A stretch of 53,638 nt of DNA, from NCBI GenBank assembly GCA_045603925.1, contig JAZUNB010000086.1, positions 1-53,638 on the forward strand, given 5' to 3'. Below are positions 1 through 25,848 of this stretch, in pieces; within the stretch, counting starts at the first letter, position 1; every line of letters starts with the position of its first letter. The notes below the pieces were generated by a model. That model searched no databases. It saw nothing but the letters and a program-made list of their open reading frames with translations, and was not told the origin of the DNA. The translations under genes were made by a program, and so were the position numbers. The stretch is from Eubacteriales bacterium. Its GTDB lineage: Bacteria; Bacillota; Clostridia; Oscillospirales; QAKW01.

Positions 1-56
1 AAGGTATATCGAATCCCAATGGGATATATCGAAAATTCCGAAGGAATTTATCTCGC
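1..56. repeat. Partial mosaic repeat array, truncated by the window start: TATATCGAA units alternating with mini-hairpins
   Basis: TATATCGAA at 5-13 and 25-33, and a degenerate TTTATCTCG at 47-55. The gaps are self-complementary: tccc-aat-ggga (14-24) and ttcc-gaa-ggaa (36-46). The architecture matches 8166-8338 and 9034-9196. Confidence 0.6.
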
Positions 57-84
57 TGCAAAGTGTCCTCAAGGACACTTTGCA
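57..84. terminator. Strong stem-loop downstream of the HD-domain gene (candidate terminator)
   Basis: tgcaaagtgtcc-tcaa-ggacactttgca forms a 12 bp perfect stem. It lies just past the minus-strand stop at 101-103. The T-tract is weak on the minus strand; a T7 run follows about 10 nt later on the plus strand. Confidence 0.45.
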
Positions 85-100
85 AAGGGCAGGTCTTTTT

Positions 101-685
101 TTATCTTTTTTCTTCCAAGTAGAGGGAGGCCTCCATATCAGCTGTGGCCAATGCAAAGGCGAGAGGATACATTTCAAAGGCTTTAGAGCAATTGCGGATA
201 TCCTTTTCTTCGGAGAAGCCCATATGATACCGAATGGCAAAGGCCTCTTCACGGGTCAGCCGCATAAAGCCGCCGATGATGTAAACGCTTTTTTCACCAT
301 GTCCATAAGGGAGATTATCATCGAATTCATAATAAGGAACCTTCTCCCAAACCCCTGCATCGTTTTTTACATTCCGCATGGAGGTTTTATAAACATTCAC
401 CTTGCAAAGATCGTGCAGTAAGGAAACGATCGCAATAGACTCCTCGCTGTATTCATTGGCAAAGAGCTTCTTGGTATAGGGTCTTGCGAGATATTCCTTC
501 AAATTGGTATAGACATTCAGGCTATGCTCGCAAAGACCGCCGGGATAATTCCCGTGAAAACGGGTGCTTGCAGGAGCGGTAAAAAAATCCGAGCCGCTTC
601 CGCAAAGGTACTCCAATAATTCTTCCGCACCTTCGCGCTTGATCTTCTCGCGATACAACGCGCAAAACTTTTCTTTCATATCCAT
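101..685 (-). CDS. HD-domain phosphohydrolase
   Basis: 194 aa ORF with HD-superfamily pattern: RFHGNYPGGLCEHS, LLHDLCK and GHGEKS. Confidence 0.75.
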   Translation of the reverse strand: MDMKEKFCALYREKIKREGAEELLEYLCGSGSDFFTAPASTRFHGNYPGGLCEHSLNVYTNLKEYLARPYTKKLFANEYSEESIAIVSLLHDLCKVNVYKTSMRNVKNDAGVWEKVPYYEFDDNLPYGHGEKSVYIIGGFMRLTREEAFAIRYHMGFSEEKDIRNCSKAFEMYPLAFALATADMEASLYLEEKR

Positions 686-704
686 AGTTGCTTTATTCCT
701 TTAC

Positions 705-1793
705 TCAATTCTCAGGTATTTTCCAGATGTGGATCTTGCCCTCTTCGTGGAGATTTTTCAAGATCACAACCGTAATGGGAAGTAAAAACATACCGCCAAA
801 GCCAAAGAGCTTCAAACCGACCCAAATGCAGAACAGGGTCACAATAGGGAGCATACCGGTATTATCCCCGATGATCTTGGGCTCCAGAATCTGCCGCACA
901 ACAGTTACAACGATATACATCGAGATCAGAATCAGCGCCTGCCATGGTTCACCGGTCAGCAGACTGAATACCGACCAAGGAATCAAAACAGTACCGACGC
1001 CGAGGACCGGCAGAATATCCACAATAGCGATCAAGAAAGCAAGGGGAATCGCCGGCTTGAACCGAAAGATCAGGAAAAAGACGGAAAGCTCAATGAAGGT
1101 AGCCAGCATCAGCAGGGAATAGGAGCGCAAATATTTCCATACAGTAGAAAACAAATTGTTTTTGATATCGATGATCAGTTCCTGATGCTTGGCCCCAAAC
1201 TGCGCTAAAACAAAACGCTTCACAACAGGGAAGGAAACCGACATAAATACGCTGGATACAATGGTCACAATAACAAAGATCAAAATATTGGGGATATAGG
1301 TAACCACATTTCCCGCATAGCCCAAAACCAAGCTTCCCAAGGAGCCGGTCAATAGTGAACTGTAATCGTAATTGGTCAAATAGGTAACAGCGTTATCGAG
1401 GATGTTATCGGGCAAAAAGGCCAGAAGTCCGTTGCTGCCGTCTAAAGCCCCCTTTAAATAGAGGATCATTTCTTTGAGATAGCCCGGAATCTTCGAAAGA
1501 AGAACCTTGCCCTCCGACCAGATGGTGGTGGATAAGAATACACCGACGACAACCAGCAACGCAATAATGGATAAAACACACAGCGTGCTGGCAATTCCAC
1601 GGGGAAAACGAGCCTTTTGAACCAGGAAAGCCACTAAAGGCTCTGCCAGAGAGGCAACAATGAATGCGATGATAAAGGGGGCGATGGCGCCGAAAACATA
1701 TCTTACCGCAAGATAAGCAAGAAAGATAAACACCGCAATAAAGGCAATTTGTATCAGGTAATGTACCCTTTTATAGTCTCGATTTGAAAGCAT
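705..1793 (-). CDS. ytvI: Sporulation integral membrane protein YtvI / AI-2E family transporter
   Basis: 362 aa polytopic membrane protein. The C-terminal VDILPVLGVGTVLIPW and LKLFGFGGMFLLPI segments are typical of the AI-2E/YtvI family. Confidence 0.7.
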   Translation of the reverse strand: MLSNRDYKRVHYLIQIAFIAVFIFLAYLAVRYVFGAIAPFIIAFIVASLAEPLVAFLVQKARFPRGIASTLCVLSIIALLVVVGVFLSTTIWSEGKVLLSKIPGYLKEMILYLKGALDGSNGLLAFLPDNILDNAVTYLTNYDYSSLLTGSLGSLVLGYAGNVVTYIPNILIFVIVTIVSSVFMSVSFPVVKRFVLAQFGAKHQELIIDIKNNLFSTVWKYLRSYSLLMLATFIELSVFFLIFRFKPAIPLAFLIAIVDILPVLGVGTVLIPWSVFSLLTGEPWQALILISMYIVVTVVRQILEPKIIGDNTGMLPIVTLFCIWVGLKLFGFGGMFLLPITVVILKNLHEEGKIHIWKIPEN

Positions 1794-1823
1794 AGAAAAC
1801 TTTTACTCCGTTATTTTTTTATT

Positions 1824-1852
1824 ATTATAGCATAGATGAAAATAAAAAATAA
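1824..1852 (-). promoter_or_regulatory. Extended -10 promoter for ytvI
   Basis: The minus strand reads TGCTATAAT (1824-1832). The -35 is weak (TTATTT, 1847-1852) at 17 nt spacing. Confidence 0.5.
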
Positions 1853-1879
1853 AGAGTATTTTGAAATTTCATAAATTCC

Positions 1880-1908
1880 TTGAAAAAATCACCGAATTGT
1901 GTTATATT
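1880..1908 (+). promoter_or_regulatory. Sigma-A type promoter for the ACT-protein/aspartokinase pair
   Basis: TTGAAA (1880-1885), a 17 nt spacer, then TATATT (1903-1908) preceded by TGT (extended -10). Confidence 0.55.
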
Positions 1909-1952
1909 TGTATTTGTATTAGCAACAAATGTCTCTATAGAAAGGACAAGCA

Positions 1953-2396
1953 ATGAACCAAGAGTATTATTTGATCGATAAAAGCGTTTTGCCCGAAATC
2001 TTCTCCAAGGTGATCGAAGCCAAACGGATCCTGCAAACCGGAGAGTGCAAAACAGTACATGAGGCCGCCAAGAAGGTGGGGATCTCCCGCAGTGTGTTTT
2101 ATAAATATAAAGACAGTGTTCATGTTTTTGTGGAGAAGGATAAACAAAATATCATCACCCTGATCCTTTATCTTTCGGATGAGATCGGCGCCCTATCCCG
2201 CGTTTTGGGCTTGATCTCTTCGGTCGGCGCAAGCATTCTGACCATTAATCAGAATGTTCCGATGAATGGGATTGCGCCCGTATCCATTTCCTTCAATACT
2301 CTGAAAATGGATATTCCGTTGGAGGAGTTATTGGATCAGATGAAAAAGCTCAGCGGTGTTTTAAGTGTAAAGCCGGTGGCAAAAGAGCGTGGATAG
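1953..2396 (+). CDS. UPF0735 (PheB-like) ACT-domain protein with N-terminal HTH-like segment
   Basis: 147 aa. The N-terminus YLIDKSVLPEIFSKVIEAKRIL...KKVGISRSVFYKYKD and a C-terminal ACT-like domain match the pattern of the UPF0735 family. Confidence 0.7.
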   Translation: MNQEYYLIDKSVLPEIFSKVIEAKRILQTGECKTVHEAAKKVGISRSVFYKYKDSVHVFVEKDKQNIITLILYLSDEIGALSRVLGLISSVGASILTINQNVPMNGIAPVSISFNTLKMDIPLEELLDQMKKLSGVLSVKPVAKERG

Positions 2397-2457
2397 AATA
2401 TAATGAAACTGAGTTAAAAAAGATCTTTTACCTCAATTCTTTCAGAGGGGGATACCA

Positions 2458-3189
2458 ATGGGACTGATTGTCCAAAAATTCGGCGGAACTTCGGTTGCAG
2501 ACCGCACCTGTCTGCATAATGTTGCCAATATCATTGCCCGCAGGATCAATGAGGGAAACCAAGTGGTTACGGTTGTTTCCGCCCAAGGGGATGCCACTGA
2601 TCGGCTTTTAGCCACCGCGCGTGAGATCACCGAAAATCCTGCGCCGAGAGAGTTGGACGCCTTACTATCCACCGGAGAGCAGGCCTCTGCCGCATTACTT
2701 GCCATCACATTGATGGATAGCGGTGTTCCCGCAGTTTCTCTGACGGGAGCCCAGGCGGGAATCTGTACGGATTCCGAATATGGAAACGCAGAGATTCTTT
2801 CCATCGATATAAAAGCAATTAAAAAGTATCTTGATCAAGGTATCGCTGTGATCGTTACCGGTTTTCAAGGGATCACTGAAAGCGGGAATGTAACCACTCT
2901 GGGGCGCGGCGGCTCCGATGCATCCGCGGTTGCTCTGGCGGCGGCATTAAATGCAGACAGCTGTCGTATCTATAAAGATGTAGACGGTATTTATACCGCC
3001 GATCCGCGAGAGGATATCACTGCTAAAAAGCTGGATCATCTCACCTATGAAGAGATGCTTGCTTTATCAGATAAAGGCTCCGGTGTGCTTCAGCGAAAAA
3101 GTATTGAATTGGCGCAGCAGCATCAGATCGAGCTTCACATCCTCTCCAGCTTTCAATTAACCAGCGGCACAATTATCAGCGAAAAATAA
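2458..3189 (+). CDS. Aspartate kinase, catalytic amino-acid-kinase domain only (no ACT domains)
   Basis: IVQKFGGTSV, VVVSAQGDATD, GFQG...TTLGRGGSDASAV and IYKDVDGIYTADPR are present. The ORF stops at 243 aa and a terminator follows directly. Typical aspartokinases are about 400 aa and carry two C-terminal ACT domains. Confidence 0.8.
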   Translation: MGLIVQKFGGTSVADRTCLHNVANIIARRINEGNQVVTVVSAQGDATDRLLATAREITENPAPRELDALLSTGEQASAALLAITLMDSGVPAVSLTGAQAGICTDSEYGNAEILSIDIKAIKKYLDQGIAVIVTGFQGITESGNVTTLGRGGSDASAVALAAALNADSCRIYKDVDGIYTADPREDITAKKLDHLTYEEMLALSDKGSGVLQRKSIELAQQHQIELHILSSFQLTSGTIISEK

Positions 3190-3205
3190 CCCTTAAGGAC
3201 AAGTT

Positions 3206-3239
3206 CGGCGGTTTTCTCTGCAGAAAACCGCCGTTTTTT
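3206..3239 (+). terminator. Intrinsic terminator after the aspartokinase gene
   Basis: cggcggttttc-tctgca-gaaaaccgccg followed by TTTTTT. Confidence 0.8.
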
Positions 3240-3915
3240 ACTGATAATAGGATCGCATTTTTGAGATTGCTTTGGTTTCGATTCTGGAAACATAGCTACG
3301 GGAGATCCCCAGTTTTTTCGCGACCTGCTTTTGGGTATGGGGAAGCGTATTGTAGAGGCCGTATCGCATAATGAGAATGCGTTTTTCCCGTGGCTCTAAC
3401 CGCTCGATATATTGATAAAGCTTCTTGCTGTTGATCTTCAGATCCAGATCCTCGGCAAAGTTTTCTTCTTCGCAAACAATATCTAAAAAGGTCAGCGCAT
3501 TTCCATCGCCATCGGTTTCGATCGGGTCGTTGATATTAACATCGTTTTGCCGCTTTTTCTGGTTGCGGAAATACATCAAGATCTCATTTTCAATGCATCT
3601 GGCTGCATAGGTTGCAAGTCTTGCGCCTTTCTGTTGATCAAAGGTGGAAACACCCTTGATCAAGCCGATGGTGCCGATAGAGATCAGATCGTCCTGATCC
3701 TTGCTGGTTGCATAGTATTTTTTAATGATATGTGCGACCAATCGGAGATTTCGCTCAATCAGGATATTCCTGGCCTCAATGTCACCCTTTTTAAACTGTT
3801 CCAGATAATACCGCTCTTCCGCCAGAGTCAATGGCTTGGGAAAGGTTGCGCCGCCGGATAGATAAAGCATCAGGAAGATGGTTTGATCCAGAAAGCTTTG
3901 CAGCGGAATAAACAT
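3238..3915 (-). CDS. sigK: RNA polymerase sporulation sigma factor SigK (pro-sigma-K), uninterrupted
   Basis: LVAHIIKKY, DLISIGTIGLIKGV, ATYAARCIENEILMY and GISRSYVSRIETKAI match SigK rather than SigE. The pro-sequence MFIPLQ...YLSGGATFPKPL is present. The ATG at 3915 has a GAGGTG RBS. The 299 aa version in the ORF track is an upstream over-extension. Confidence 0.85.
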   Translation of the reverse strand: MFIPLQSFLDQTIFLMLYLSGGATFPKPLTLAEERYYLEQFKKGDIEARNILIERNLRLVAHIIKKYYATSKDQDDLISIGTIGLIKGVSTFDQQKGARLATYAARCIENEILMYFRNQKKRQNDVNINDPIETDGDGNALTFLDIVCEEENFAEDLDLKINSKKLYQYIERLEPREKRILIMRYGLYNTLPHTQKQVAKKLGISRSYVSRIETKAISKMRSYYQ

Positions 3916-3933
3916 ATAGATCACCTCAGAAAC

Positions 3934-3941
3934 AGTGTATG
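3934..3941 (-). promoter_or_regulatory. Candidate mother-cell (sigma-E/K type) -10 element upstream of sigK
   Basis: The minus strand reads CATACACT 18 nt upstream of the sigK ATG, matching the CATACAnT -10 consensus. I found no convincing -35. Confidence 0.3.
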
Positions 3942-3959
3942 AAAAAAGTCGCTTGTCAC

Positions 3960-3988
3960 TTGCAAAAAGTTCATTGATATGATATGAT
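3960..3988 (+). promoter_or_regulatory. Candidate sigma-A promoter for the 126 aa ORF
   Basis: TTGCAA (3960-3965), a 17 nt spacer, then TATGAT (3983-3988). It overlaps a TGATA x3 micro-repeat. Confidence 0.35.
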
Positions 3989-4014
3989 ATTAAAAATGTT
4001 GAAAGGGCTATAAA

Positions 4015-4395
4015 ATGATAGAGATTAAAAAGGTGACCGACCCCTTGATCTTGGATCGGATCAGTAAAGACCACCAAATAGAAATTGAATGCAGTGATCA
4101 TGTGATTGCTACCATTGAAAGAGAAAAAATCCTCCATTGCGCAGTGTTCTCTTACGAGGATGAAATCGGAAAAATCAAGGCAATAAGCGGCTTTGAGGGC
4201 AATATAGATCTCTTGGATGGCCTTTGCCGCGCAATTTTAAACATCATGGACATCAATGGTGTAAAGCAAGTTTACTTGTCAAATAAATATGCAAAATTAG
4301 CGGAATTTGTCGGTTTTTCAAAGGCCGAAGGCAGTGATTATATTCTGCAGTTGGAAGGATTTTTCCAATGCGGATGCTGTAGATCAAAAAAATAG
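4015..4395 (+). CDS. Hypothetical small protein with C-terminal CGCC motif
   Basis: 126 aa with a GAAAGGG RBS. I recognise no family. It ends FFQCGCCRSKK. It is divergent from sigK and immediately upstream of the HAD gene. Confidence 0.5.
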   Translation: MIEIKKVTDPLILDRISKDHQIEIECSDHVIATIEREKILHCAVFSYEDEIGKIKAISGFEGNIDLLDGLCRAILNIMDINGVKQVYLSNKYAKLAEFVGFSKAEGSDYILQLEGFFQCGCCRSKK

Positions 4396-4407
4396 GGGAG
4401 AGCAACA

Positions 4408-5199
4408 ATGGAATTAAAGGATAAGCGTTTATTTTTGCTGGATATGGACGGTACCATCTATCTGGATCAGGAATTATTTGACGGTACATTAGACTTTTTG
4501 GAGCATGTAAAAAAAATCGGCGGCAGAGCCATGTATCTGACCAATAATAGCTCCAAAAGTGTTCAAAAATATATTGAAAAGCTTGGCTCTATGGGCATTA
4601 AAGCCGGCAAAGAGGATTTTACAACCTCGGCTCAGGCAACCGCATTATATCTGCAGAAAACCCATAAAGACGACTTATTATATGTATTCGGCACTCAAGC
4701 CTTGAAGGATGAGTTGATCGAATATGGCCTCAAAATTACTGACACGATTTGTGATGAAATCGCCTGTTTGGTAATGGGCTTTGACACCGAGCTTTGCTTT
4801 CAGAAATTAGAAGATGCATGTATTTTGTTAAACCGTGGCGTGGATTACATTGCAACCAATCCCGATTGGGTTTGTCCCACATGGTACGGATCGGTTCCTG
4901 ATTGCGGTTCCATTGCGCAGATTCTGCAAACAGCAACAGGAAGACTACCGAAATTCATCGGAAAGCCGGAGCCCACTATGATCGATCTTGCAATAGAGTA
5001 TACAGGCTTTAAAAAGGAGCAGGCCATCATATTGGGAGACCGTTTATATACCGATATCGCAAGCGGAAGCAATGCAGGAATCGATACAGCGTTAATGCTG
5101 AGCGGTGAATCCACTATGGAAGATGTTGAGGTATTTGATGGGAAGAAACCGACTTATATATTTGATAATATCAGATGCTTCCTGAATGCAATTCAATAG
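4408..5199 (+). CDS. HAD-IIA family hydrolase (NagD-like sugar phosphatase)
   Basis: FLLDMDGTIY (DxDGT), YLTNNSSKS, GKPEP and LGDRLYTDI motifs. Confidence 0.8.
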   Translation: MELKDKRLFLLDMDGTIYLDQELFDGTLDFLEHVKKIGGRAMYLTNNSSKSVQKYIEKLGSMGIKAGKEDFTTSAQATALYLQKTHKDDLLYVFGTQALKDELIEYGLKITDTICDEIACLVMGFDTELCFQKLEDACILLNRGVDYIATNPDWVCPTWYGSVPDCGSIAQILQTATGRLPKFIGKPEPTMIDLAIEYTGFKKEQAIILGDRLYTDIASGSNAGIDTALMLSGESTMEDVEVFDGKKPTYIFDNIRCFLNAIQ

Positions 5200-5289
5200 A
5201 ATCCCCATAAATGTACCTATAATTAAATTAATATGATTTTGAGCCGGAAAAGGATAAAATCTTCTCCGGCTCAACTAATTACTCCCCCT

Positions 5290-5319
5290 AACTGCACAAA
5301 ATATCCATTTTGTGCAGTT
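5290..5319. promoter_or_regulatory. Perfect 13 bp inverted repeat abutting the -35 of the recombinase promoter (operator or hairpin)
   Basis: AACTGCACAAAAT-atcc-ATTTTGTGCAGTT. Its last two bases are the first two bases of the TTGACA -35 box. Confidence 0.55.
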
Positions 5320-5346
5320 GACATTGTATATATTTCGTGATATAAT
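5318..5346 (+). promoter_or_regulatory. Consensus sigma-A promoter
   Basis: TTGACA (5318-5323), a 17 nt spacer, then TGaTATAAT (-10 at 5341-5346). Confidence 0.75.
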
Positions 5347-5378
5347 ATTTTCATCCCCCGTTCAAAGGAGTGAGAATT

Positions 5379-6350
5379 TTGATCGATTATGACCGCCTTC
5401 CGCAAACTTTAAAGGATTTTATTTTCTATTTAGAGGTTGTTTTGGGAAAATCCAAGTCAACTACCTATGAATATATTCTCGATCTTGAGAACTTTTTCCG
5501 TTATACCCGAATCAAAAAAGAAAAGCTCCCATCCGATACGAAGCTGCATGATGTTGCGATCCATGATCTTGATATTCCCTTTGTGGCATCCATTACCTTG
5601 CAGGATATCTACGATTATTTTTATTACTGCCGTGAGGTTCGTAAAAACGGTTCCCGCAGTATTTCCAGAAAAATGTCTTCCCTTCGTACTTATTTTAAGT
5701 ATATGACCCAGAAGATGCACCTTTTGAAGAATAACCCCATGGAGGGCGTTTCCACCCCTTCCCTGCCTAAAACCCTTCCCAAGCATCTGACTCTGGAGGA
5801 AAGCACAGAATTGCTGTCTGCTGTCAAAAAAAGTCGCAGAGATTATGCAATCCTTACGCTGTTTTTAAACTGCGGAATGCGCCTTGCAGAACTGGTTTCT
5901 CTGAATGTGAGCGATATTAAGAATGAGTACGCGGTGATCACCGGCAAAGGCAATAAACAGCGTACCATTCATTTAAATCAAGCCTGCCGCGATGCGGTAG
6001 ACGATTATCTGAACCACGAACGCCCCAAGGAAGGCTTGAAAGACCCGGAGGCACTGTTTATCAGCCGAAATAAGAGCCGTATTTCCCGTCGCGCGGTGCA
6101 GAATCTGGTTGAAAAATACCTGCATATTGCCGGTTTGGGCGACAAACACCTATCAACCCATAAGCTGCGGCATACAGCGGCAACCTTAATGCATCGCCAT
6201 GGCCATGTGGACATCCGCGTGCTTCAGGAAATTTTAGGCCATGAAAACCTCGGGACCACCCAGATTTATACCCATGTAGACAGCGAATCCATCAAAGAAG
6301 CATCCATCAGCAATCCCCTTTCTAAAATGAAACGAAAAAATATAGAATAA
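5379..6350 (+). CDS. Tyrosine site-specific recombinase, XerC/XerD family
   Basis: Catalytic pattern: GMRLAEL (R), HKLRHTAAT (HxxR), LGHENLGTTQIYTHV (H...Y). The GTG at 5370 overlaps the AAGGAG Shine-Dalgarno, so the TTG at 5379 is the more likely start. Confidence 0.8.
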   Translation: MIDYDRLPQTLKDFIFYLEVVLGKSKSTTYEYILDLENFFRYTRIKKEKLPSDTKLHDVAIHDLDIPFVASITLQDIYDYFYYCREVRKNGSRSISRKMSSLRTYFKYMTQKMHLLKNNPMEGVSTPSLPKTLPKHLTLEESTELLSAVKKSRRDYAILTLFLNCGMRLAELVSLNVSDIKNEYAVITGKGNKQRTIHLNQACRDAVDDYLNHERPKEGLKDPEALFISRNKSRISRRAVQNLVEKYLHIAGLGDKHLSTHKLRHTAATLMHRHGHVDIRVLQEILGHENLGTTQIYTHVDSESIKEASISNPLSKMKRKNIE

Positions 6351-6376
6351 GGCGCCGAAATCGGCGCCTTATTTTT
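6349..6376. terminator. Bidirectional terminator between convergent genes
   Basis: aaggcgccga-aa-tcggcgcctt followed by a T-rich run. The stem is flanked by A on one side and T on the other. Confidence 0.8.
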
Positions 6377-7433
6377 ATAGTATGATCAATTCTTTATTGG
6401 ATTTTGTCAGATTTTCATACCCATTTTCGGTAATATAAACCATATCCTCGATGCGAACCCCGAACTGATCCGAAAGATAGATCCCCGGCTCAACGGTGAT
6501 GACCATTCCCGGGGCGAGAACAGTCTCATCCGAGGTGTTAAAGCAAGGCTCTTCGTGGATCTCAATGCCAACGCTATGCCCCAAACCGTGGCCGAAACAG
6601 CCCTCATAGCCCTTGGAATTTATATAATTCCGCGCAGCCCCATCGATATCCTTACAGATCTTCCCCGGCGCAATAGCATCCAGCGCCTTTTGCTGCGCCG
6701 CCAGCACCGTCTCATATACTTCTCTTTGTTTGCTGCTCACCGGCCCGACCGCAACCGTTCGGGTCATATCGGAGCGATATCCCTTTACAACCGCTCCGAA
6801 ATCCATGGTAATGAAATCTCCCTTTTCGATCTTCTTATCGGTAGGAACTCCATGGGGCAACGAAGAGTTCTTACCGGAGACCACAATGAAGTCAAAGGAT
6901 ACCCCCTCGCTCCCCTGCTTTCGCAAAAAGAATTCCATGTCAAGCATAATTTCACGCTCGGTTTTTCCAGCGGAAATTTGCCCTAAAATGTATCCAAAGG
7001 TATCATCGGTAATCTTTTGCGCTTTTTTGATAAAACCAAGTTCTGCAGGCGTTTTAATGCTTCTCATGGCAAGGATCTTGCGATCAAGGCGAGGATCTTC
7101 CAAAATGCAACCGAAAATATCCTGATATCGGCTCTTTTCCGATACCGTCATACAGGAGGTCTCAATATAAACTGTTCGAACCGCATATTTCTTTGCCAAT
7201 TCCTTCAACTGATCCGAGGCTTTCTTGAGTAGCAAAACATTGCATACCGACACCGTCTTTACAGCCTTTTCATAATAGCGAAAATCAATCAAAAAATCCG
7301 CCGAGTTTTTAGTAACAAAAAGCACACCGGCAGAGGATTTGAAGTCGGTTAAATAAAGACGGTTGGCTCCGCTTGTTATAAGGACCCCTTCCCCGCTGTT
7401 TAAGTTTTTCTGCAATTTTTCGATTTTTGTCAT
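6375..7433 (-). CDS. Xaa-Pro aminopeptidase (M24 family)
   Basis: 352 aa with M24B metal ligand context: DFGAVVKGYRSDMTRT, GHGLGHSVGIEIHE and VITVEPGIY. Confidence 0.85.
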   Translation of the reverse strand: MTKIEKLQKNLNSGEGVLITSGANRLYLTDFKSSAGVLFVTKNSADFLIDFRYYEKAVKTVSVCNVLLLKKASDQLKELAKKYAVRTVYIETSCMTVSEKSRYQDIFGCILEDPRLDRKILAMRSIKTPAELGFIKKAQKITDDTFGYILGQISAGKTEREIMLDMEFFLRKQGSEGVSFDFIVVSGKNSSLPHGVPTDKKIEKGDFITMDFGAVVKGYRSDMTRTVAVGPVSSKQREVYETVLAAQQKALDAIAPGKICKDIDGAARNYINSKGYEGCFGHGLGHSVGIEIHEEPCFNTSDETVLAPGMVITVEPGIYLSDQFGVRIEDMVYITENGYENLTKSNKELIIL

Positions 7434-7436
7434 GGC

Positions 7437-8024
7437 TTAACTTTCCTTTGCTTTGCTCATTTTCAAATGTCTTTTATGCCAAATCTGCCGCATAATAACC
7501 ACAGATATGAGATATGCAATGCAAATAGTCATAGTATTGATCAAAAACAACCCCAAAATTTTTGGTAATAAAATGTAAGAAAAGATTTTCATGTTCAGCA
7601 ATAAGATTCCCGTAAAGGGAAACATTGCAAAGCCAAGGAATGACTGCACAGGCTCCGGGGCATTTATAAGCAGCAGTACGATATGTAAAAAATAATAGAG
7701 GGCTGTTGTAAGAATTATTGCAAGAATGTTACGCCGTTGTGTTAAATAAACATTTATGAGATCCTTAAAAAAGCCCGGCTTATTTGCTTTATATAAATTA
7801 AGGGATGCGATTCTATATGGTGAGTTGCGAAAGTGAATCATACACGCAAATACAATGGCAAATATAACCCAGATCACGATGTATGCCTCAAAATGAAACG
7901 ATATTCTTCCGGTATAGTCCGGAAAACTTGAAATGAAATAAAACCATATTGCAAACGGGAGCCCCAAAATCATATAGATTATTAAAGTGATGATTGAAGA
8001 AAACAACAGCCAGACGCAGATCAT
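7437..8024 (-). CDS. Hypothetical polytopic membrane protein (AT-rich gene)
   Basis: 195 aa with at least 5 hydrophobic spans and a GAGGGGAG RBS. I recognise no family. The stop lies 3 nt before the aminopeptidase start. Confidence 0.55.
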   Translation of the reverse strand: MICVWLLFSSIITLIIYMILGLPFAIWFYFISSFPDYTGRISFHFEAYIVIWVIFAIVFACMIHFRNSPYRIASLNLYKANKPGFFKDLINVYLTQRRNILAIILTTALYYFLHIVLLLINAPEPVQSFLGFAMFPFTGILLLNMKIFSYILLPKILGLFLINTMTICIAYLISVVIMRQIWHKRHLKMSKAKES

Positions 8025-8130
8025 CTTAAATCCACACTCCCCTCTCGTGCAATTAGATATAATGCAAGCAAATAATTAGGTAAAAGAATTAAGTTTTCGA
8101 AGCCAGGGCATCAAAACGCCGTTTTAAAGA

Positions 8131-8159
8131 ATTATAGCATAAAAGCGGTGGAGTGGCAA
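8131..8159 (-). promoter_or_regulatory. Sigma-A promoter with extended -10 for the membrane-protein gene
   Basis: The minus strand reads TTGCCA (8154-8159), a 17 nt spacer, then TGCTATAAT (-10 at 8131-8136). Confidence 0.65.
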
Positions 8160-8165
8160 GTTATT

Positions 8166-8338
8166 AGTGATATTCTGTGCTTCGCACAGAGTGATATTTT
8201 CACTTCGTGAAAGTGATATTAAAACCTACGGTTTTAGTGATATTATATTCGCCTTTTAACTGCCCGAAGGGCAATATCACTCGGCGTTAGCCGAATATCA
8301 CTGCGAAGCAATATCACTCGCCGAAGGCGAATATAACT
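8166..8338. repeat. Mosaic array: 4 direct AGTGATATT followed by 4 inverted AATATCACT, every gap a different mini-hairpin
   Basis: AGTGATATT at 8166, 8190, 8212 and 8236. AATATCACT at 8273, 8294 and 8310, and AATATAACT at 8330. Gap hairpins: ctgtgc-ttc-gcacag, ttcac-ttc-gtgaa, aaaacc-tac-ggtttt, tgccc-gaa-gggca, cggc-gtta-gccg, gc-gaa-gc, cgcc-gaa-ggcg. Confidence 0.9.
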
Positions 8339-8340
8339 AA

Positions 8341-8373
8341 AAAACTCTTGTTCTTTCGAACAAGAGTTTTTTT
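8341..8373 (-). terminator. Intrinsic terminator of the lipoprotein gene
   Basis: aaaactcttgttc-tttc-gaacaagagtttt, flanked by A and T runs on both sides. Confidence 0.8.
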
Positions 8374-8433
8374 GGGAGTTTTGAACTTAATGACACGAAT
8401 AAAAAGCGCCTGAAAACCGAGGATTTTCTTTAT

Positions 8434-8994
8434 TTATTCGAATTTGTTTTCAATTGGCTCGCTAAATTCGAATCTTATAATTTTTATTCCAAAATATTTT
8501 CCAAGTTGCTCATAACTCAATTCTGTAAATTCAACCTTTGAAGTGTTATCAGATACTTTATAAGTTTCAGAATAATTTATATACGGATGCTTATCTTTGT
8601 AATTGGGGTCACCAAGATAATATCCACCGTGACCATAATATAGAATTACTCTTGATTCCGTATTGATTCTTCCTTTAACAAGCATAGATTCCGTATTGGG
8701 TTCAAACTCAATAAATAATCTTTTGGATTCATCGCCACTTTCTAAAGATGCATCCCAAGAACGTGAATATGGAAACCCAAATATCGCAAAATTATTTGAC
8801 ATATCATATCCGTCATAAGTACAAACTACTGTATCTTCGATTAAATATCTTTCACCATTCATTTCATATTCTAAAATAAATGGAAATTTGCCTTCTGTTA
8901 TTTTAGGTGCAGGCTCATATCTTTCCTTGCAACCAGAAAAACAAAATATCATTAAAACAACAATACCTATTGAAAGCAATTTCTTCATAATCAT
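8434..8994 (-). CDS. Hypothetical lipoprotein (AT-rich gene)
   Basis: Signal peptide with lipobox: MIMKKLLSIGIVVLMIFCFSGC. The mature part matches no family I recognise. The 225 aa ORF in the track over-extends into the upstream repeat array. The start could instead be 8988. Confidence 0.6.
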   Translation of the reverse strand: MIMKKLLSIGIVVLMIFCFSGCKERYEPAPKITEGKFPFILEYEMNGERYLIEDTVVCTYDGYDMSNNFAIFGFPYSRSWDASLESGDESKRLFIEFEPNTESMLVKGRINTESRVILYYGHGGYYLGDPNYKDKHPYINYSETYKVSDNTSKVEFTELSYEQLGKYFGIKIIRFEFSEPIENKFE

Positions 8995-9009
8995 CACCGC
9001 CTTGGATTT

Positions 9010-9018
9010 ATTATAGCA
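9010..9018 (-). promoter_or_regulatory. Extended -10 element for the lipoprotein gene
   Basis: The minus strand reads TGCTATAAT, 15 nt upstream of the ATG at 8994. The -35 is poor. Confidence 0.45.
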
Positions 9019-9033
9019 TAAAAACGGTAATTT

Positions 9034-9196
9034 GTATGTAATCCGCAACTTGTTGCGGAATGTAATCCACCGTAGGTGGTATGTAATCAATCCGAAGGAA
9101 GAAACATACAAAGCTCACGCTTTGATAACATACAGTTCGCAAGGCGAACTGACTACATACGCCTATCGGCGATTACATACCAATCCTTCGGATTGG
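9034..9196. repeat. Mosaic array: GTATGTAATC-type direct units followed by GATTACATAC-type inverted units with unique mini-hairpins
   Basis: ATGTAATC at 9036, 9060 and 9081. ACATAC at 9104, 9128, 9155 and 9175, with the full GATTACATAC at 9171-9180. Hairpins: cgcaac-tt-gttgcg, cacc-gtag-gtgg, tcc-gaa-gga, aagc-tcac-gctt, agttcgc-aag-gcgaact, gcc-tatc-ggc, ccaatcc-ttc-ggattgg. Confidence 0.85.
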
Positions 9197-9200
9197 ATAA

Positions 9201-9233
9201 AAAATAAGACAGTCTTCGGACTGTCTTATTTTT
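9201..9233 (-). terminator. Terminator of the tRNA operon (bidirectional shape)
   Basis: taagacagtc-ttcg-gactgtctta, flanked by AAAA and TTTTTT. Confidence 0.8.
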
Positions 9234-9308
9234 TGGAGGTGCCAATCGGATTTGAACCGATGAATAAAGGTTTTGCAGACCTTGGCCTTACCACTTGGCT
9301 ATGGCACC
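9234..9308 (-). tRNA. tRNA-Cys (GCA)
   Basis: The minus strand reads GGTGCCATAGCCAAGTGGTAAGGC...CTGCAAA...GGTTCAAATCC...TGGCACCTCCA. The cloverleaf was checked by hand and the CCA is encoded. Confidence 0.9.
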
Positions 9309-9313
9309 GTATG

Positions 9314-9346
9314 AGAAAAGGTATATGAGTTCCATATACCTTTTCT
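9314..9346 (-). other. Inter-tRNA stem-loop (possible processing signal)
   Basis: A 13-14 bp perfect stem, gaaaaggtatatg / catataccttttc, with a 5 nt loop, lying between tRNA-Phe and tRNA-Cys. Confidence 0.5.
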
Positions 9347-9353
9347 TTATGAA

Positions 9354-9429
9354 TGGTGCCTCCGGGCGGAATCGAACCACCGACACGGGGATTTTCAGTC
9401 CCCTGCTCTACCAACTGAGCTACAGAGGC
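9354..9429 (-). tRNA. tRNA-Phe (GAA)
   Basis: The minus strand reads GCCTCTGTAGCTCAGTTGGTAGAGC...ACTGAAAAT...GGTTCGATTCC...GGAGGCACCA. Confidence 0.9.
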
Positions 9430-9435
9430 AACAAG

Positions 9436-9512
9436 TGGCGACCCGGATGGGGCTCGAACCCACGACCTCTAGCGTGACAGGCTAGCGTTCTAACCAACTG
9501 AACTACCGGGCC
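9436..9512 (-). tRNA. tRNA-Asp (GTC)
   Basis: The minus strand reads GGCCCGGTAGTTCAGTTGGTTAGAAC, then anticodon stem CTAGC, loop CTGTCAC and stem GCTAG, then GGTTCGAGCCC...CCGGGTCGCCA. Confidence 0.9.
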
Positions 9513-9544
9513 ACATCGCCGCAATTCTTGTTGCAACGATAGAT

Positions 9545-9573
9545 ATTTTACAACATACTCTATTAAAAGTCAA
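9545..9573 (-). promoter_or_regulatory. Sigma-A promoter of the tRNA operon
   Basis: The minus strand reads TTGACT (9568-9573), a 17 nt spacer, then TAAAAT (9545-9550). Confidence 0.65.
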
Positions 9574-9596
9574 GTGTTTTTCTTGAAAAATATCAA

Positions 9597-10478
9597 TTAT
9601 TTTTTCAGCCCGCTGATCAAGAGATTTTCCATCTCTTTCGGAGTGAAGGAATATGCCTGATCGCAGAAGTTACAGCAGATCTCAACATCATTTCCTTCCC
9701 CAATGAGAGAGGCCAATTCTTTTCTTCCCAGGCTGAGCAGGATCTTCTCGGTTTTAGCTCTGGAGCAATTGCAATAATAAGCCGCATCCCATTCTTCGGT
9801 CACATGAAAGGGGATCTGATCCATTAATATGCTTGCGATGGCTTCATTAGAAGTGTGCTCAAACATTGCCGATACATTGGTAACCTTCTGCAGGTTTTCC
9901 TCCAGCCTGGAGATCACCTCATCATCGGCGCCGGGCAAAAGCTGTAAAAGAAAGCCGCCTGCCGATTTCACCGTATAATCCCGATCTACTAAAACACCAA
10001 GACCGCAAACGGTGGGCGTTTGCTCGCTGATGGCATAATAATTGGTAATATCCTCGGCGATCTCGCCGCTGACCAATTCGGTGCGGCTGACATAAGGCTC
10101 CCCTTCCCCGTTGTCTCTCAAAACGGTCAAGTAACCGTAGCCAAGCGCGCCGCTCACATCCAATTTACCGTTGGCCTTCAAGGGTAGATCCACCATTGAA
10201 ACGCCCGGATATCCCTTGACGCGCCCTTTTCGGTCAGCCGTTGCCAATAGAGTTTTCACCGGTCCGTCGCCCTCGATCTGAAGGGTCAAGAGATCGGAAT
10301 CGTTTTTCAGGGTCTTCCCCATCATGGCGGCTGCAGTCAGCAACCGACCCAATGCCGCAGTAACAACGGGGGCTGTTTTATGGAAATCAAAGGCTTGCTG
10401 CGCTAATTCCTTGGAATTCAAAAAATAGCCTCGCACCATACCGTTATCGGAAAGAATGGTCAAGCCGGGGTTCTTCAT
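9597..10478 (-). CDS. hslO: Redox-regulated chaperone Hsp33
   Basis: 293 aa with the C-terminal zinc centre CNCSRAK...CNFCDQAY. Confidence 0.85.
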   Translation of the reverse strand: MKNPGLTILSDNGMVRGYFLNSKELAQQAFDFHKTAPVVTAALGRLLTAAAMMGKTLKNDSDLLTLQIEGDGPVKTLLATADRKGRVKGYPGVSMVDLPLKANGKLDVSGALGYGYLTVLRDNGEGEPYVSRTELVSGEIAEDITNYYAISEQTPTVCGLGVLVDRDYTVKSAGGFLLQLLPGADDEVISRLEENLQKVTNVSAMFEHTSNEAIASILMDQIPFHVTEEWDAAYYCNCSRAKTEKILLSLGRKELASLIGEGNDVEICCNFCDQAYSFTPKEMENLLISGLKK

Positions 10479-11224
10479 TTGTTGCTCCTTTTTCTTGCAA
10501 TATAAGTAATCCTCTGGGTTTCAGCATTTGTTGCTTGATCCGAGTAGTCATCCAAAATCTCCAGCAATTCGAATCCGTACTGATTCAAAAGCGCTTCAAT
10601 TGTTGACGATGAGAAATAACGCTGCAACTGCTCTTCATCCCGCCGCCGGTAAGTATTACCATCCTTTTCAAAAAAGGTCAATTGATGGCTGCAAAACTGC
10701 CCGTCAAAGCCGCTTCGCCAGGACAAAAAGATCTCATCGTTATCATAGATCTCGCAATGATTATTCAGCAAAGTTTGATACTTATAATAAGAATTAATGT
10801 CAAAGATCAACAGACCTTCGGGATTCAAATAGTTTTGAAACCAATAAAACAGACGGTCCAGATCTTCCTCATTGGAAATATAATTTAATGTATCCAGGGT
10901 AGAAATGATTGCGTCAACAGTGCCGTAAAGCTCAAATTCCGGCAACTGCTGCAGCAACAGCAATACTCCATCTCCGTTTGTATGATCAGCGCGTTTATTC
11001 ATCGCCTCGGTCAGCATATCCATACTACCGTCGATCCCGATCATATCATAGCCTTTTTCGGAAAGACCAAAGGTTACCGTTCCGCTTCCGCATCCAACAT
11101 CGCAAACTAAAGATGCTTCGGGAAAATAGGCTTTGATCTTACGGTCGATAAAGGAGATGATCTTATCATAATCCGCGCCGACAAAGCGGTCATAGTATTG
11201 AGCTAATGCTTCAAAACCATTCAT
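10475..11224 (-). CDS. Class I SAM-dependent methyltransferase
   Basis: Motif I: VCDVGCGSGTVTFGL. Its stop overlaps the hslO start. Confidence 0.75.
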   Translation of the reverse strand: MNGFEALAQYYDRFVGADYDKIISFIDRKIKAYFPEASLVCDVGCGSGTVTFGLSEKGYDMIGIDGSMDMLTEAMNKRADHTNGDGVLLLLQQLPEFELYGTVDAIISTLDTLNYISNEEDLDRLFYWFQNYLNPEGLLIFDINSYYKYQTLLNNHCEIYDNDEIFLSWRSGFDGQFCSHQLTFFEKDGNTYRRRDEEQLQRYFSSSTIEALLNQYGFELLEILDDYSDQATNAETQRITYIARKRSNK

Positions 11225-11227
11225 GAT

Positions 11228-11515
11228 TTATTTGCCCATACGCTCAAAAACGCGATTATACCCGTCGGAACCGTAATTGAGACTACGCTTCACACGGCTG
11301 ATGGTAGCGGTAGATGCGCCGGTTTGATCCACAATATCCTGGTAAGATCTCCCCTGCGCCAAAAGATATGCCACCTCAAAGCGTTGAGACATCGCTTTAA
11401 ACTCCGCAATACTGCAAAGATCCTCAAAGAAATCATAGCATTCTTCTATATTTTTCAGATGAAGAATTGCTTCAAAAAGATGATCACTGCTCGCGTCCTT
11501 TAATTTCATATTCAT
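11228..11515 (-). CDS. YerC/YecD family TrpR-related DNA-binding protein
   Basis: 95 aa: LFEAILHLKNIEECYDFFEDLCSIAEFKAMSQRFEVA...GASTATISRVKRSL. Confidence 0.8.
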   Translation of the reverse strand: MNMKLKDASSDHLFEAILHLKNIEECYDFFEDLCSIAEFKAMSQRFEVAYLLAQGRSYQDIVDQTGASTATISRVKRSLNYGSDGYNRVFERMGK

Positions 11516-11536
11516 TGGTAGGTCTCCTTAAACACA

Positions 11537-11565
11537 TAATAGTAACATTTTAACATATTAAATTA
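11537..11565 (-). promoter_or_regulatory. Sigma-A promoter for the yerC-like/methyltransferase/hslO unit
   Basis: The minus strand reads TTGATT (11560-11565), a 17 nt spacer, then TGtTAAAAT (-10 at 11537-11542). Confidence 0.55.
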
Positions 11566-11585
11566 TAAAAATCAATGGTAAAAAT

Positions 11586-11613
11586 AAAAAGGCATCGTTA
11601 AAGATGCCTTTTT
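11586..11613 (-). terminator. Terminator after obg
   Basis: aaaaaggcatc-gttaaa-gatgccttttt. On the minus strand it is followed by ATTTTT. Confidence 0.8.
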
Positions 11614-11617
11614 GATA

Positions 11618-12886
11618 TTAGCGGATATAATCAAACTCCAGATCGCCGATCCGGACCGGATCGCCTTCCTGAATACCCATTTCTTCCAATTTATCGATAA
11701 TACCGTTGGTCTGAAGCACTCTTTGGAAGAAGTTCATGGATTCATAATCATCAAAACGAATGGTTTCCATGATCTTAAAGAGCCATTCACCCTCCACAAC
11801 ATACGTTCCGTTGTCTTTGATAACTGTAAAGGTTTTATCCTTTTCAGTTTGTACGGGTGTTTTAACATATTCACTCTCAAAAACCTTGGTTTTCGGCAGA
11901 GTATCAAGCAATTCCGCCACCTTGCCCAGCAAGGGGTCGAGGCCGTTTTTGGTTGCAGCAGAGATGCAAAAGACCGGATAGCCGAGTTTTTCAACATGCT
12001 TGATGAACTTTTCCTTGATCTCCTCATCATAAATCGCATCGCATTTATTTGCAACAACGATTTGCGGTAAGGAAGCTAAAACAGGAGAATAATTCTGCAG
12101 CTCATTATTAATGATCTCAAAATCTTCAATGGGATCTCTCCCCTCGGTACCTGCCACATCGATCACATGAAGCAGCATTCTGCAACGCTCCACATGGCGC
12201 AAAAAGGCGGTTCCGAGCCCTGCGCCATCGGCGGCGCCTTCAATGATGCCGGGAATATCGGCAACAACAAATCCGCCGCCAAAGCGATCAACTACACCGA
12301 GGTTCGGCGTCATAGTAGTAAAATGATAATTGGCGATCTTAGGTCTTGCAGAGGAAACCACCGATAAAAAGGTTGACTTCCCGACATTGGGAAAACCAAT
12401 CAAACCAACATCGGCAATAAGCTTCAATTCCAACTGAATGTGAAACTCTTCCCCGGGCTGACCGGGTTTTGCAAAACGGGGAATCTGGCGGGTAGGCGTT
12501 GCAAAATGCTGGTTTCCCCATCCCCCATTGCCGCCTTTGGCCGCAATAAAGGGCGTCTCATCCGAAAGATCCTTGATCAGAAGGCCGGTTTCGGCATCCT
12601 TGATCAGCGTTCCGACCGGAACCTTAATAACCAAAGGAGGCGCACCTGCGCCGGTACAGTTTTTGGTACCGCCGTCTTTGCCGTTTTCGGCAACATATTT
12701 TCTTTTATAACGGAAATCCATCAATGTGTTCAGGTTGCGGTCGGCTTGAAAGATAATATCTCCGCCTTTCCCGCCATCGCCACCGTCGGGACCGCCGGCG
12801 TTTACATACTTTTCCCGATGAAAAGCAACGGCACCGTCTCCGCCTTTACCGGCTTTGATCCAAATCTTAGCCACATCAACAAACAT
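11618..12886 (-). CDS. obg: GTPase ObgE/CgtA
   Basis: Glycine-rich Obg fold (KAGKGGDGAVAFHREKY, GGDGGKGGDI), G1 GFPNVGKST, and a C-terminal OCT-like domain. Confidence 0.95.
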   Translation of the reverse strand: MFVDVAKIWIKAGKGGDGAVAFHREKYVNAGGPDGGDGGKGGDIIFQADRNLNTLMDFRYKRKYVAENGKDGGTKNCTGAGAPPLVIKVPVGTLIKDAETGLLIKDLSDETPFIAAKGGNGGWGNQHFATPTRQIPRFAKPGQPGEEFHIQLELKLIADVGLIGFPNVGKSTFLSVVSSARPKIANYHFTTMTPNLGVVDRFGGGFVVADIPGIIEGAADGAGLGTAFLRHVERCRMLLHVIDVAGTEGRDPIEDFEIINNELQNYSPVLASLPQIVVANKCDAIYDEEIKEKFIKHVEKLGYPVFCISAATKNGLDPLLGKVAELLDTLPKTKVFESEYVKTPVQTEKDKTFTVIKDNGTYVVEGEWLFKIMETIRFDDYESMNFFQRVLQTNGIIDKLEEMGIQEGDPVRIGDLEFDYIR

Positions 12887-21941: not shown

Positions 21942-22334
21942 TTATTTTGCAATACTGCTCAAAACACCGTGCACAAAACTGCCGGAATCTTCCTCGCCGA
22001 ATTCCTTAGCCAACTCGATAGCTTCATTTACGGCGACCCGATCGGGAATATCGGGATTGAATTTAATTTCATAAACCGCAACCCGCAGGATCGCAAGGCA
22101 AACAGCACTAACCCGTTTCATTGACCATTTAGTAAGGCAGGGCTCGATCATCTGATTGATCTCCTCCCAATGGGCAACAATTCCGTCTACAGTCTCATTA
22201 ATGTAAGGCAGGCTTTCACCGTCTTCTCTTTGGCGAAAAAACTCTTCCAATACCGCTTCCTTTTGTTCCAAACCCTGATAATTCAGCGAATAGACCAATT
22301 GGAAGACTACTTTTCTTTGCTTTTGACGAGTCAT
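21942..22334 (-). CDS. nusB: Transcription antitermination factor NusB
   Basis: 130 aa with AILRVAVYEI and VINEAIELAKEFG-like VAVNEAIELAKEFG. Confidence 0.9.
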   Translation of the reverse strand: MTRQKQRKVVFQLVYSLNYQGLEQKEAVLEEFFRQREDGESLPYINETVDGIVAHWEEINQMIEPCLTKWSMKRVSAVCLAILRVAVYEIKFNPDIPDRVAVNEAIELAKEFGEEDSGSFVHGVLSSIAK

Positions 22335-23844: not shown

Positions 23845-23849
23845 AAAGC

Positions 23850-25835: not shown

Positions 25836-25848
25836 CTTTCAATCCTCC

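Follow-up and report, generated by a model that had tools for sequence, protein, structure and literature searches.

What keeps the architecture of a noncoding locus constant when the sequences that build it differ? The question is raised by contig JAZUNB010000086.1 of a Eubacteriales bacterium, 53,638 nt long and analyzed here over its full length (the window), for which an earlier reading of the letters (the original prediction) had described three arrays of short units. In these arrays, hairpins form the spacers and the units of the right half are the reverse complement of those of the left. A first pass on the window recovered all three as described (arrays 1 to 3, numbered from the contig start; coordinates in Table 1). 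We find that they are copies of a widespread mirror-symmetric noncoding element of gut Clostridia, belonging to a superfamily that includes the Rfam family Gut-1. Judging from sequence, we put a probability of roughly 45% on the reading that this is a non-autonomous structured DNA element, similar to repetitive extragenic palindromic (REP) sequences and bacterial interspersed mosaic elements (BIME), which would land in or beside intrinsic terminators and persist as a folded single strand.

Three arrays and one described family

The arrays are far beyond chance. They fold far better than shuffled sequences, whether as RNA or as DNA (z of −8.4 to −11.6). The rest of the 53.6-kb window contains no cluster of at least four copies of an 8-mer and its reverse complement, and a covariance-model scan of positions 1–12,000 returned nothing comparable outside the arrays. 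A detector written for the array grammar finds 79 arrays in 795 kb of related loci and 0 in shuffled sequence. In its strict form it under-counts, since it misses 3-bp stems; in the window it found the left half of array 2 only.

Array 2 belongs to a family that has already been described. The Rfam model RF01706 (Gut-1) matches one half of it (8269–8339, − strand) with 62.5 bits, against a gathering score of 50, and scores 48.6 bits on the other half (8165–8248, + strand). Arrays 1 and 3 gave no RF01706 match at E-values up to 10, so array 2 is the sole member of the three. In the alignment to the model, array 2 has the three hairpins separated by GUGAWAU that define the family, and the Rfam seed alignment holds sequences near-identical to it. 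The 2010 description of Gut-1 drew on 43 sequences from human-gut metagenomes and gave a consensus of three hairpins separated by GUGAAAU or GUGAWAU, with no assigned function (PMC2864571).

Gut-1, carried in Rfam since 2010 as an orphan "RNA" from human-gut metagenomes, is half of a larger mirror-symmetric element. The Rfam entry and array 2 share a gut habitat, but the entry covers 77 nt and one half, while the element described here measures ~175 nt plus a terminator, is mirror-symmetric, and contains a long-range helix (P1). The flanks in the original authors' seed alignment already show a terminator on the upstream side and a second half whose units are AUAUCAC. This second half has apparently never been described, as far as can be seen. 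The literature on Gut-1 or RF01706 that we found consists of the 2010 discovery paper only, and a 2026 preprint on the mining of noncoding elements omits Gut-1. Taken alone, array 2 is a known element. What appears to be new is the architecture as a whole, together with the sister families, the tie to terminators, and the mobility. The original prediction had seen neither the Gut-1 identity of array 2, nor that the terminator lies within the homologous module, nor that elements are gained and lost.

A mirror-symmetric element of gut Clostridia

The grammar had been expected to extend beyond these loci, and it does. A pattern scan for three spaced GTGATATT units, with one genome per species of Clostridia, identified at least 120 species-level loci in cultured and uncultured organisms. 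The matches listed come almost entirely from gut or rumen Clostridia (Oscillospiraceae, Acutalibacteraceae, Ruminococcus, Christensenellaceae, and Lachnospiraceae); among them the unit pattern ++++−−−− is dominant and the divergent order occurs in none.

We read the element on the strand in which its large hairpin (T) comes first, which is the − strand of the window (T-first strand). The canonical element starts with T, caGTTATATT, cgcc..ggcg, aGTGATATT, gc..gc, and aGTGATATT, and continues with cggc..gccg, aGTGATATT, and gccc..gggc to a center of the form agtt-N4-GGCGAATATAAT. It ends with ATCACt and a hairpin, two repeats of AATATCACt with a hairpin, and a closing AATATCACt. A covariance model of 175 positions, built from 37 elements, recovers 63 full-length copies at 139–198 bits, and the opposite strand of the same 63 loci scores 30–75 bits, i.e., 100–140 bits lower. 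The element is therefore quasi-palindromic yet clearly polar, and its halves are not equivalent, one being conserved in sequence and the other variable. The central segments are not simple hairpins; they hold one strand of the long-range helix.

This layout is shared by at least seven unit families, and in every one of them the second half is built from reverse-complement units (Table 1). An analog of P1 is present in the families with units TCGATAT, TGAAATA, GCGATAT, AGTGATG, GCTAAAT, and ATGTAAT. Scored with the 175-nt model of the Gut-1 family, array 3 reaches no more than 14.4 bits and array 1 falls short of significance, so the kinship of these two arrays with Gut-1 is architectural. The units of the three arrays had been called unrelated. 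This does not hold: all families found fit a degenerate core of approximately ATWTCRC / GYGAWAT, their units differing at one to three positions, and TATATCGAA and AATATCACT have ATATC in common. A possible further family, with units TATGGAAT / CATGGCAT / CATATCAT and hairpins of the type cgcc-aaa-ggcg, lies at 528–580 of locus L110, where one half was seen. Arrays with other units lie 0.2–2 kb from Gut-1 arrays in L013, L022, L041, L081, and L110.

Compensatory change in hairpins and helix P1

Hairpins and P1 are shown to be maintained by compensatory change. Across the seven local hairpins in the alignment of 63 sequences, 96.5% of the cells are paired, compared with 73.5% after shuffling and at most 45% when the partners are slid. 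The stems contain 455 double-change cells where 126 are expected, and 30 out of 37 pairs show compensatory change. The inference of selection for, or templated maintenance of, pairing within the spacers is borne out by these figures. In helix P1, the center (GGCGAATANAA) pairs with a segment 84–87 nt away (TTNTATTCGCC, the first unit with the 5′ arm of the first hairpin). The single variable column of P1 reads A-T 31 times, T-A 19, C-G 19, and G.T once; a second count gives AU 28, UA 16, and CG 14.

The units behave differently from the stems. Within the Gut-1 family there is no covariation between left and right units (89.3% paired versus 89.1% shuffled). The T-proximal units drift without compensation (GTGATATT, GTTATATT, GTTCTATT, GTTTTATT, and GTGGTATT), and the T-distal units are almost invariantly AATATCACT, across orders of Clostridia. 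The predicted covariation of left with right units holds only between families, of which at least seven have reverse-complement units, and the pattern between families could equally reflect inverted duplication or a shared reader of both orientations. "Ladder" pairing across the dyad, predicted by energy minimization, was rejected as a conserved feature, as it shows no covariation within the Gut-1 family. A sequence-specific binding protein had been judged a less likely explanation of the arrays; since the distal AATATCACT units are almost invariant, sequence-specific recognition has to be kept under consideration.

Position behind transcription units

The element has a fixed polarity behind the 3′ ends of transcription units. 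The upstream open reading frame is co-oriented with the T-first strand in 51 cases versus 17. Fourteen of 75 elements lie 12–39 nt behind a co-oriented tRNA gene, with eight tRNA specificities represented, and none precedes a tRNA gene; only five out of 62 elements lie between divergent genes. This extragenic position at 3′ ends is the one known for REP and BIME. The large hairpin is of two classes, either a canonical bidirectional terminator or a "T-like" hairpin of 11–12 bp that lacks a T run and has a more U-rich first unit behind it. On its 3′ side, the element is followed by an outward promoter, 0–7 bp from the last unit or overlapping it, or by the terminator of a convergent gene. The neighboring genes (flanks of ~4 kb) are diverse housekeeping genes with no family in common. 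A conserved promoter of the element's own was considered and rejected: the extended −10 sequence at the center occurs in just 34 of the 63 elements and is confounded with the sequence of the unit and P1.

Gain and loss

Array 1 is a recent insertion, and the element is still being gained. Over 3.6 kb the relative L332 is 98.5% identical, yet it has nothing but an intact bidirectional terminator, aaaaaaagacctgcc-cttc-ggcaggtctttttt, between the HD-domain gene and radA, and L336 and L337, whose radA genes are 94% and 92% identical, likewise have only the terminator at this site. The homology of the window to these array-less relatives ends at position 85, in the loop of their intact terminator, where the T-like hairpin and array 1 follow. 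Because these three relatives keep the terminator without an array, array 1 is the derived state, an insertion into the terminator loop. As in array 1, an A run lies 9–14 nt upstream in twelve further elements that have T-like hairpins, which suggests, without proving it, that they arrived in the same way. The contig, i.e., the whole window, starts inside array 1, and the assembly break may reflect strain polymorphism or the repeat structure.

Array 2 is absent from the orthologous site in three related species (L333, L334, and L335). One of these, L334, has array 3, and another, L335, has it half-deleted. The block at 8131–8378, comprising terminator, array, and the −35 and −10 sequences, is found again in L012 with 93% identity and unalignable flanks; there the terminator stem is identical and stands behind a tRNA-Thr gene. 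Arrays 1 and 2 thus show the presence/absence polymorphism expected of a miniature inverted-repeat transposable element.

Two local duplications were seen among the copies. Those at 1020–1181 and 1433–1594 of L040 are 99% identical and were duplicated together with a tRNA gene and terminator; those at 2276–2449 and 4994–5160 of L033 are 2.7 kb apart and 93% identical.

DNA or RNA as the acting form

The full element opens with a large hairpin, in many cases an intrinsic terminator that serves the gene or tRNA operon upstream. Three to five short GC-rich hairpins follow, with a constant AT-rich unit of 7–9 nt between them; the center folds back on the first unit together with the hairpin arm (helix P1); and three to five hairpins separated by the reverse-complement unit complete the element. 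Under the reading that we favor, it would act as a folded single DNA strand, either in the lagging-strand template or extruded under supercoiling, and RNA read through from it would be a by-product or a secondary layer. Insertion would do little harm to neighboring genes because the element brings a hairpin and a U-rich first unit and sometimes an outward promoter. We infer three parts of this picture: that DNA and not RNA is the acting form, that targeting of terminator loops is a general rule, and that harmlessness is the reason for the built-in terminator.

Several observations argue for DNA. G.U pairs are rare, at ~1% of stem cells. Between sequences of 85–93% identity, double changes from one Watson-Crick pair to another number 86, against 25 changes to G.T and 20 to mismatches, an excess that is expected if both strands must pair or if the arms are copied from each other. 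The loops are of the form c(GNA)g or c(GNRA)g, and on the strand opposite to the Rfam orientation the second hairpin (h2) is exactly GCGNAGC in 58 out of 69 elements; in array 2 it is GCGAAGC. GCGNAGC is the consensus of mini-hairpin DNA, a structure found in single-strand priming sites and in the hairpin promoters of phage N4; as DNA it is far more stable than as RNA, with a melting temperature of 39°C for r(GCGAAAGC) (PMC13037366). The loop polarity flips between the two halves, and relative to the terminator it is reversed in the ATGTAATC (ATGTAAT) family compared with Gut-1, so that no single transcript would have good loops throughout. Finally, the element stands after strong terminators, and no promoter is common to all copies.

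Other observations weigh against this reading. Weinberg et al. rated Gut-1 as certainly an RNA ("RNA: Y") (PMC2864571), and the GNRA loops and the tandem G.A mismatches confined to one strand (G.A 33 versus T.C 3) also fit RNA. Copies within one genome are mostly 58–73% identical and have their nearest relatives in the orthologs of other species, from which it follows that most copies are old and vertically inherited; they do not look like the product of recent bursts. For array 1, with its far junction beyond the contig start, no terminal inverted repeats or target duplication could be shown, no clear duplication was seen at other copies, and no transposase or HUH-type gene was found beside any copy in the ~4-kb flanks.

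The main alternative is that the element is a structured noncoding RNA, made either as a small RNA that starts at the center and runs toward the shared terminator or as a 3′ trailer of read-through transcripts. Its hairpins would be rigid spacers, and the 7-nt units between them would be presented single-stranded either to a multimeric RNA-binding factor or to their complements in the other half. We regard this as rather unlikely from the sequences at hand. In its favor, besides the Rfam match and its authors' rating, there is the strong covariation of the stems, the presence of the GNRA loops GCAA, GTAA, and GAAA, and the advantage of one strand over the other in the covariance model. Purine-rich mismatches are confined to one strand, and in the distal half G.T outnumbers A.C by 18 to 8. 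In the 34 elements mentioned above, an extended −10 sequence (TGaTATTAT), often with a TTGAAA −35 sequence, stands at the center on the opposite strand and is aimed at the terminator. Spacers of 7–17 nt whose ends are kept together by a hairpin also fit the display of single-stranded units.

The same promoter, however, would reduce the variable structured half to mere DNA upstream of a promoter, and its −10 sequence is also forced by the sequence of the unit and P1. Read in the Rfam orientation, the motif comes after a strong terminator, and no promoter is kept in all copies. The scarcity of G.U pairs is not what an RNA leads one to expect, and on either strand half of the hairpins would have UNC loops instead of GNA or GNRA loops, with the reversed polarity of the ATGTAAT family added to this. 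Triloops of the form c(GNA)g are weak in RNA.

The testable question is therefore whether the element is a Gram-positive counterpart of REP and BIME acting as single-stranded DNA, or an RNA. It has practical sides as well. The elements break assemblies, the present contig beginning inside one, and with their terminators and promoters they bear on annotation and on how gene expression in abundant gut anaerobes is understood.

Comparison with known systems

The resemblance of the element to REP, BIME, and REPIN sequences lies in their extragenic location, their clustering at gene 3′ ends, and the coexistence of several families per genome. Small palindromes, alternating or inverted and joined by short linkers, are a further likeness to REP and BIME. 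REP elements are also thought to act as folded single strands (PMC3333891, PMC3116915). There are differences as well. In REP the palindrome is conserved and the linkers vary, whereas here the linker, i.e., the unit, is conserved and the palindromes differ. The repeated identical palindrome of a REPIN is missing: hairpins differ within and between arrays, and the 7–9-nt unit alone is constant. The copies are not near-identical within a genome, and they stand after the terminator, not before it. No RAYT-like gene stood out in the ~4-kb flanks, the only stretch inspected.

Integron attC sites also keep structure without sequence, act as a folded single strand, and stand at gene 3′ ends, and in the window low-GC accessory genes adjoin the arrays. 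However, an attC site is a single imperfect hairpin with conserved R and L boxes and needs an integron integrase. Neither R″/L″...L′/R′ boxes with the GTTRRRY core in the element sequences nor an integron integrase in the window was found; the only tyrosine recombinase of the window (5370–6350) is syntenic in relatives without arrays.

A further likeness is to mini-hairpin DNA, single-strand initiation signals, and N4 hairpin promoters, in which d(GCGNAGC)/d(GCGNNAGC) have the identical repertoire of loops and closing pairs and function in single-stranded DNA, though as single hairpins at phage or plasmid origins or at promoters (PMC13037366). The unit number of the arrays changes between relatives and a constant short repeat alternates with variable inserts, as in CRISPR; in contrast, the repeat measures 7–9 nt here instead of 23–50 nt, the spacers are self-complementary and 7–17 nt long, and the arrays are mirror-symmetric. 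We found no CRISPR match above the gathering score and no cas genes. We know of no description of an array grammar or of an association with terminators for mini-hairpin DNA.

Other explanations

The pairing might be a by-product of DNA copying without a selected function, produced by template switching in quasi-palindromes and by slippage between the direct repeats, which would make and mend the small palindromes and homogenize the units; we consider this improbable. It would account for the excess of double over single changes even at 85–93% identity (86 versus 45), for the exchange of whole hairpins between close relatives, for the very few G.T intermediates, and for unit numbers that vary between species (three in array 3 versus five in L013, with array 3 partly deleted in L335). 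It does not account for the 4+4 layout, the positional homology of the hairpins, the invariant AATATCACT units, and P1. These features have been preserved across families and across orders of Clostridia, which calls for selection or a dedicated mechanism, and unselected palindromes flanked by direct repeats should be deleted.

One more elaborate version of the mobile element is a long shot. Mobile structured DNA would enter the loops of terminator hairpins as a single strand, and mini-hairpins would then be inserted with staggered cuts, each time duplicating the 7–9-bp unit. The unit would thus be duplicated in the manner of a CRISPR repeat or a target-site duplication. Such stepwise insertion would account for units that are uniform inside an array but not between arrays, for hairpins that all differ, and for a unit number that changes between relatives.

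It is very doubtful that the units are double-stranded sites, or iterons, at which sequence-specific proteins regulate or insulate the abutting promoter. The near invariance of the distal units is in line with this, as are a last unit that at many loci lies 0–7 bp from the −35 hexamer or overlaps it and a mirror-symmetric 4+4 layout that resembles multi-site protein complexes. A start-to-start spacing of 16–26 bp, however, would place the sites on different faces of the helix, and the covariation of the hairpins would go unexplained. At least seven unit families coexist, at times separated by 0.2–2 kb of one genome, no genes for cognate regulators were found in the ~4-kb flanks, and many arrays lie between convergent genes, where there is no promoter. 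The regular direct repeats beside a Rep gene that mark iterons were not found, with the spacing just given and no plasmid match.

A phage or plasmid origin was rejected, since there is no plasmid match and 90 of the 91 pattern hits in viral contigs are plain tandem repeats. One IMG/VR contig of 4.2 kb does hold a true Gut-1-type element (L125, 1355–1607), and two unannotated "Bacteriophage sp." records from human feces (MT835815.1 and MT835476.1) match half of array 2 with 81–86% identity; these three records could be prophage flanks or mis-binned bacterial DNA. Readings of the units as anti-Shine-Dalgarno, DnaA-box, WalR, Spo0A, or dif-like sites were set aside, since the likeness fits one family at most.

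Features of the window

Table 1. Array features in the window and sister families of the element (positions in the window unless a locus is named)
Feature	Position	Strand	Description
Array 1 (T-proximal part only)	1–56	−	Truncated by the contig start, which falls inside the array
Array 1 units	5–13, 25–33, 49–56	−	TATATCGAA at the first two; degenerate unit at 49–56; sequence reading
Array 1 hairpins	14–24, 34–48	−	Spacers tccc-aat-ggga and aattcc-gaa-ggaatt
Array 1 "T-like" large hairpin	57–84	−	tgcaaagtgtcct-caa-aggacactttgca; inverted repeat, 13 bp, 100% complementary; same class as the hairpins before Gut-1 arrays in L002, L085, L106
Remnant of resident bidirectional terminator of HD-domain gene	85–110	−	One arm and A/T run
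Array 2, whole	8161–8338	−	Repeats and hairpin spacers; 6/6 inter-unit spacers are hairpins, center gccc-gaa-gggc also
Array 2 left units	8166, 8190, 8212, 8236		AGTGATATT ×4
Array 2 right units	8273, 8294, 8310, 8330		AATATCACT ×3, AATATAACT at 8330; after the center the order is AATATCACT ×3, then a single AATATAAC
Array 2 T-distal half	8161–8244	−	AATATCACT ×4 with three longer, variable hairpins H5–H7 (GNA loops closed by C-G)
Array 2 center, 3′ strand of P1	8243–8256	−	GGCGAATATAA on the − strand; pairs with 8324–8336; inverted repeat of 13 nt, 100% complementary
Array 2 T-proximal half, Rfam Gut-1 motif proper	8257–8338	−	GTTATATT, then GTGATATT ×3; short, conserved hairpins cgcc/ggcg, gc/gc (GCGAAGC on + strand), cggc/gccg, gccc/gggc
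Array 2 bidirectional intrinsic terminator T	8339–8372		Perfect 15-bp stem, A run and T run; ends lipoprotein-like gene 8434–8988; part of the conserved module
Outward promoter abutting array 2	8131–8159	−	TTGCCA 8159–8154, 17-nt spacer, TGcTATAAT with −10 at 8136–8131; 11/12 consensus matches, TG present; inside the block homologous across species
Array 3, whole	9033–9197	−	Repeats and hairpin spacers; three GTATGTAATC-type units and three to four reverse-complement units
Array 3 left units	9034, 9058, 9079		(G)TATGTAATC-type
Array 3 right units	9124, 9151, 9171		GATAACATAC, GACTACATAC, GATTACATAC; spacers are hairpins
Array 3 T-distal half	9033–9099	−	GATTACAT(A/T)C ×3; hairpins 9042–9059, 9068–9079; center 9088–9099 complementary to 9184–9195
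Array 3 T-proximal half	9100–9197	−	First hairpin h0 ccaatcc-gaa-ggattgg, 9181–9197; then hairpins at 9161–9170, 9133–9151, 9109–9124
Array 3 bidirectional terminator T	9199–9234		16-bp stem; ends tRNA-Asp/Phe/Cys operon (9234–9512, − strand)
Extended −10 TGcTATAAT, promoter of gene 8434–8988	9010–9018	−	Read from sequence
Sister family TCGATAT(A)	L022 3899–4074; window array 1		Complete array in L022
Sister family TGAAATA	L041		Also GUGAAAU of the Rfam consensus
Sister family GCGATAT	L081		
Sister family AGTGATG	L110		
Sister family GCTAAAT	L117		
Sister family ATGTAATC (ATGTAAT)	Window array 3; L013, L334, L335		Metagenome loci L218, L249, L265, L273, L300, L329

On the − strand, the T-proximal units of array 3 after h0 read GTATGTAATC, GTATGTAGTC, GTATGTTATC, and GTATGTTTC, decaying toward the center, and this layout recurs in L334, L265, and L273. 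The last unit of the array occupies the place of the expected −35 sequence of gene 8434–8988, whose promoter-leader module is found again in relatives.

Arrays 2 and 3 flank two small genes of low GC content (31–37%, versus 43–52% around them). This stretch, 7437–8988, codes for two proteins without a Pfam match, a membrane protein of 195 aa and a lipoprotein-like one of 184 aa, and an exact look-up of five proteins of the window returned no match. Relatives have tandem small membrane or lipoprotein genes, each with a promoter-leader module of the form ccgcttttaTGcTATAAT ... aaggcggtga ... ATG, which occurs four times in L112 (3500–7950). Since its content differs in every species, the region from HSP33/tRNA-Cys to pepP looks like a cassette-like accessory locus. 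Sub-threshold Rfam hits (STnc40, sraL, and others) at 6307–6423 are accounted for by the bidirectional terminator (aaggcgccgaaatcggcgcctt) that separates the recombinase gene from pepP. Within 22,200–26,600, several 8-mers occur three times within 260 bp; this is probably coding sequence, and it has no hairpin arrays.

Two smaller motifs recur. The extended −10 sequence TGcTATAAT, preceded by ttta, occurs three times on the − strand (1824–1832, 8131–8139, and 9010–9018); two of these copies adjoin arrays, and the one at the AI-2E transporter gene has none. A small hairpin, gaaaacc-ga-ggattttc, lies at 8412–8428 between the stop codon of gene 8434–8988 and the terminator, and it is kept behind unrelated small genes in L013, L041, L112, and L028.

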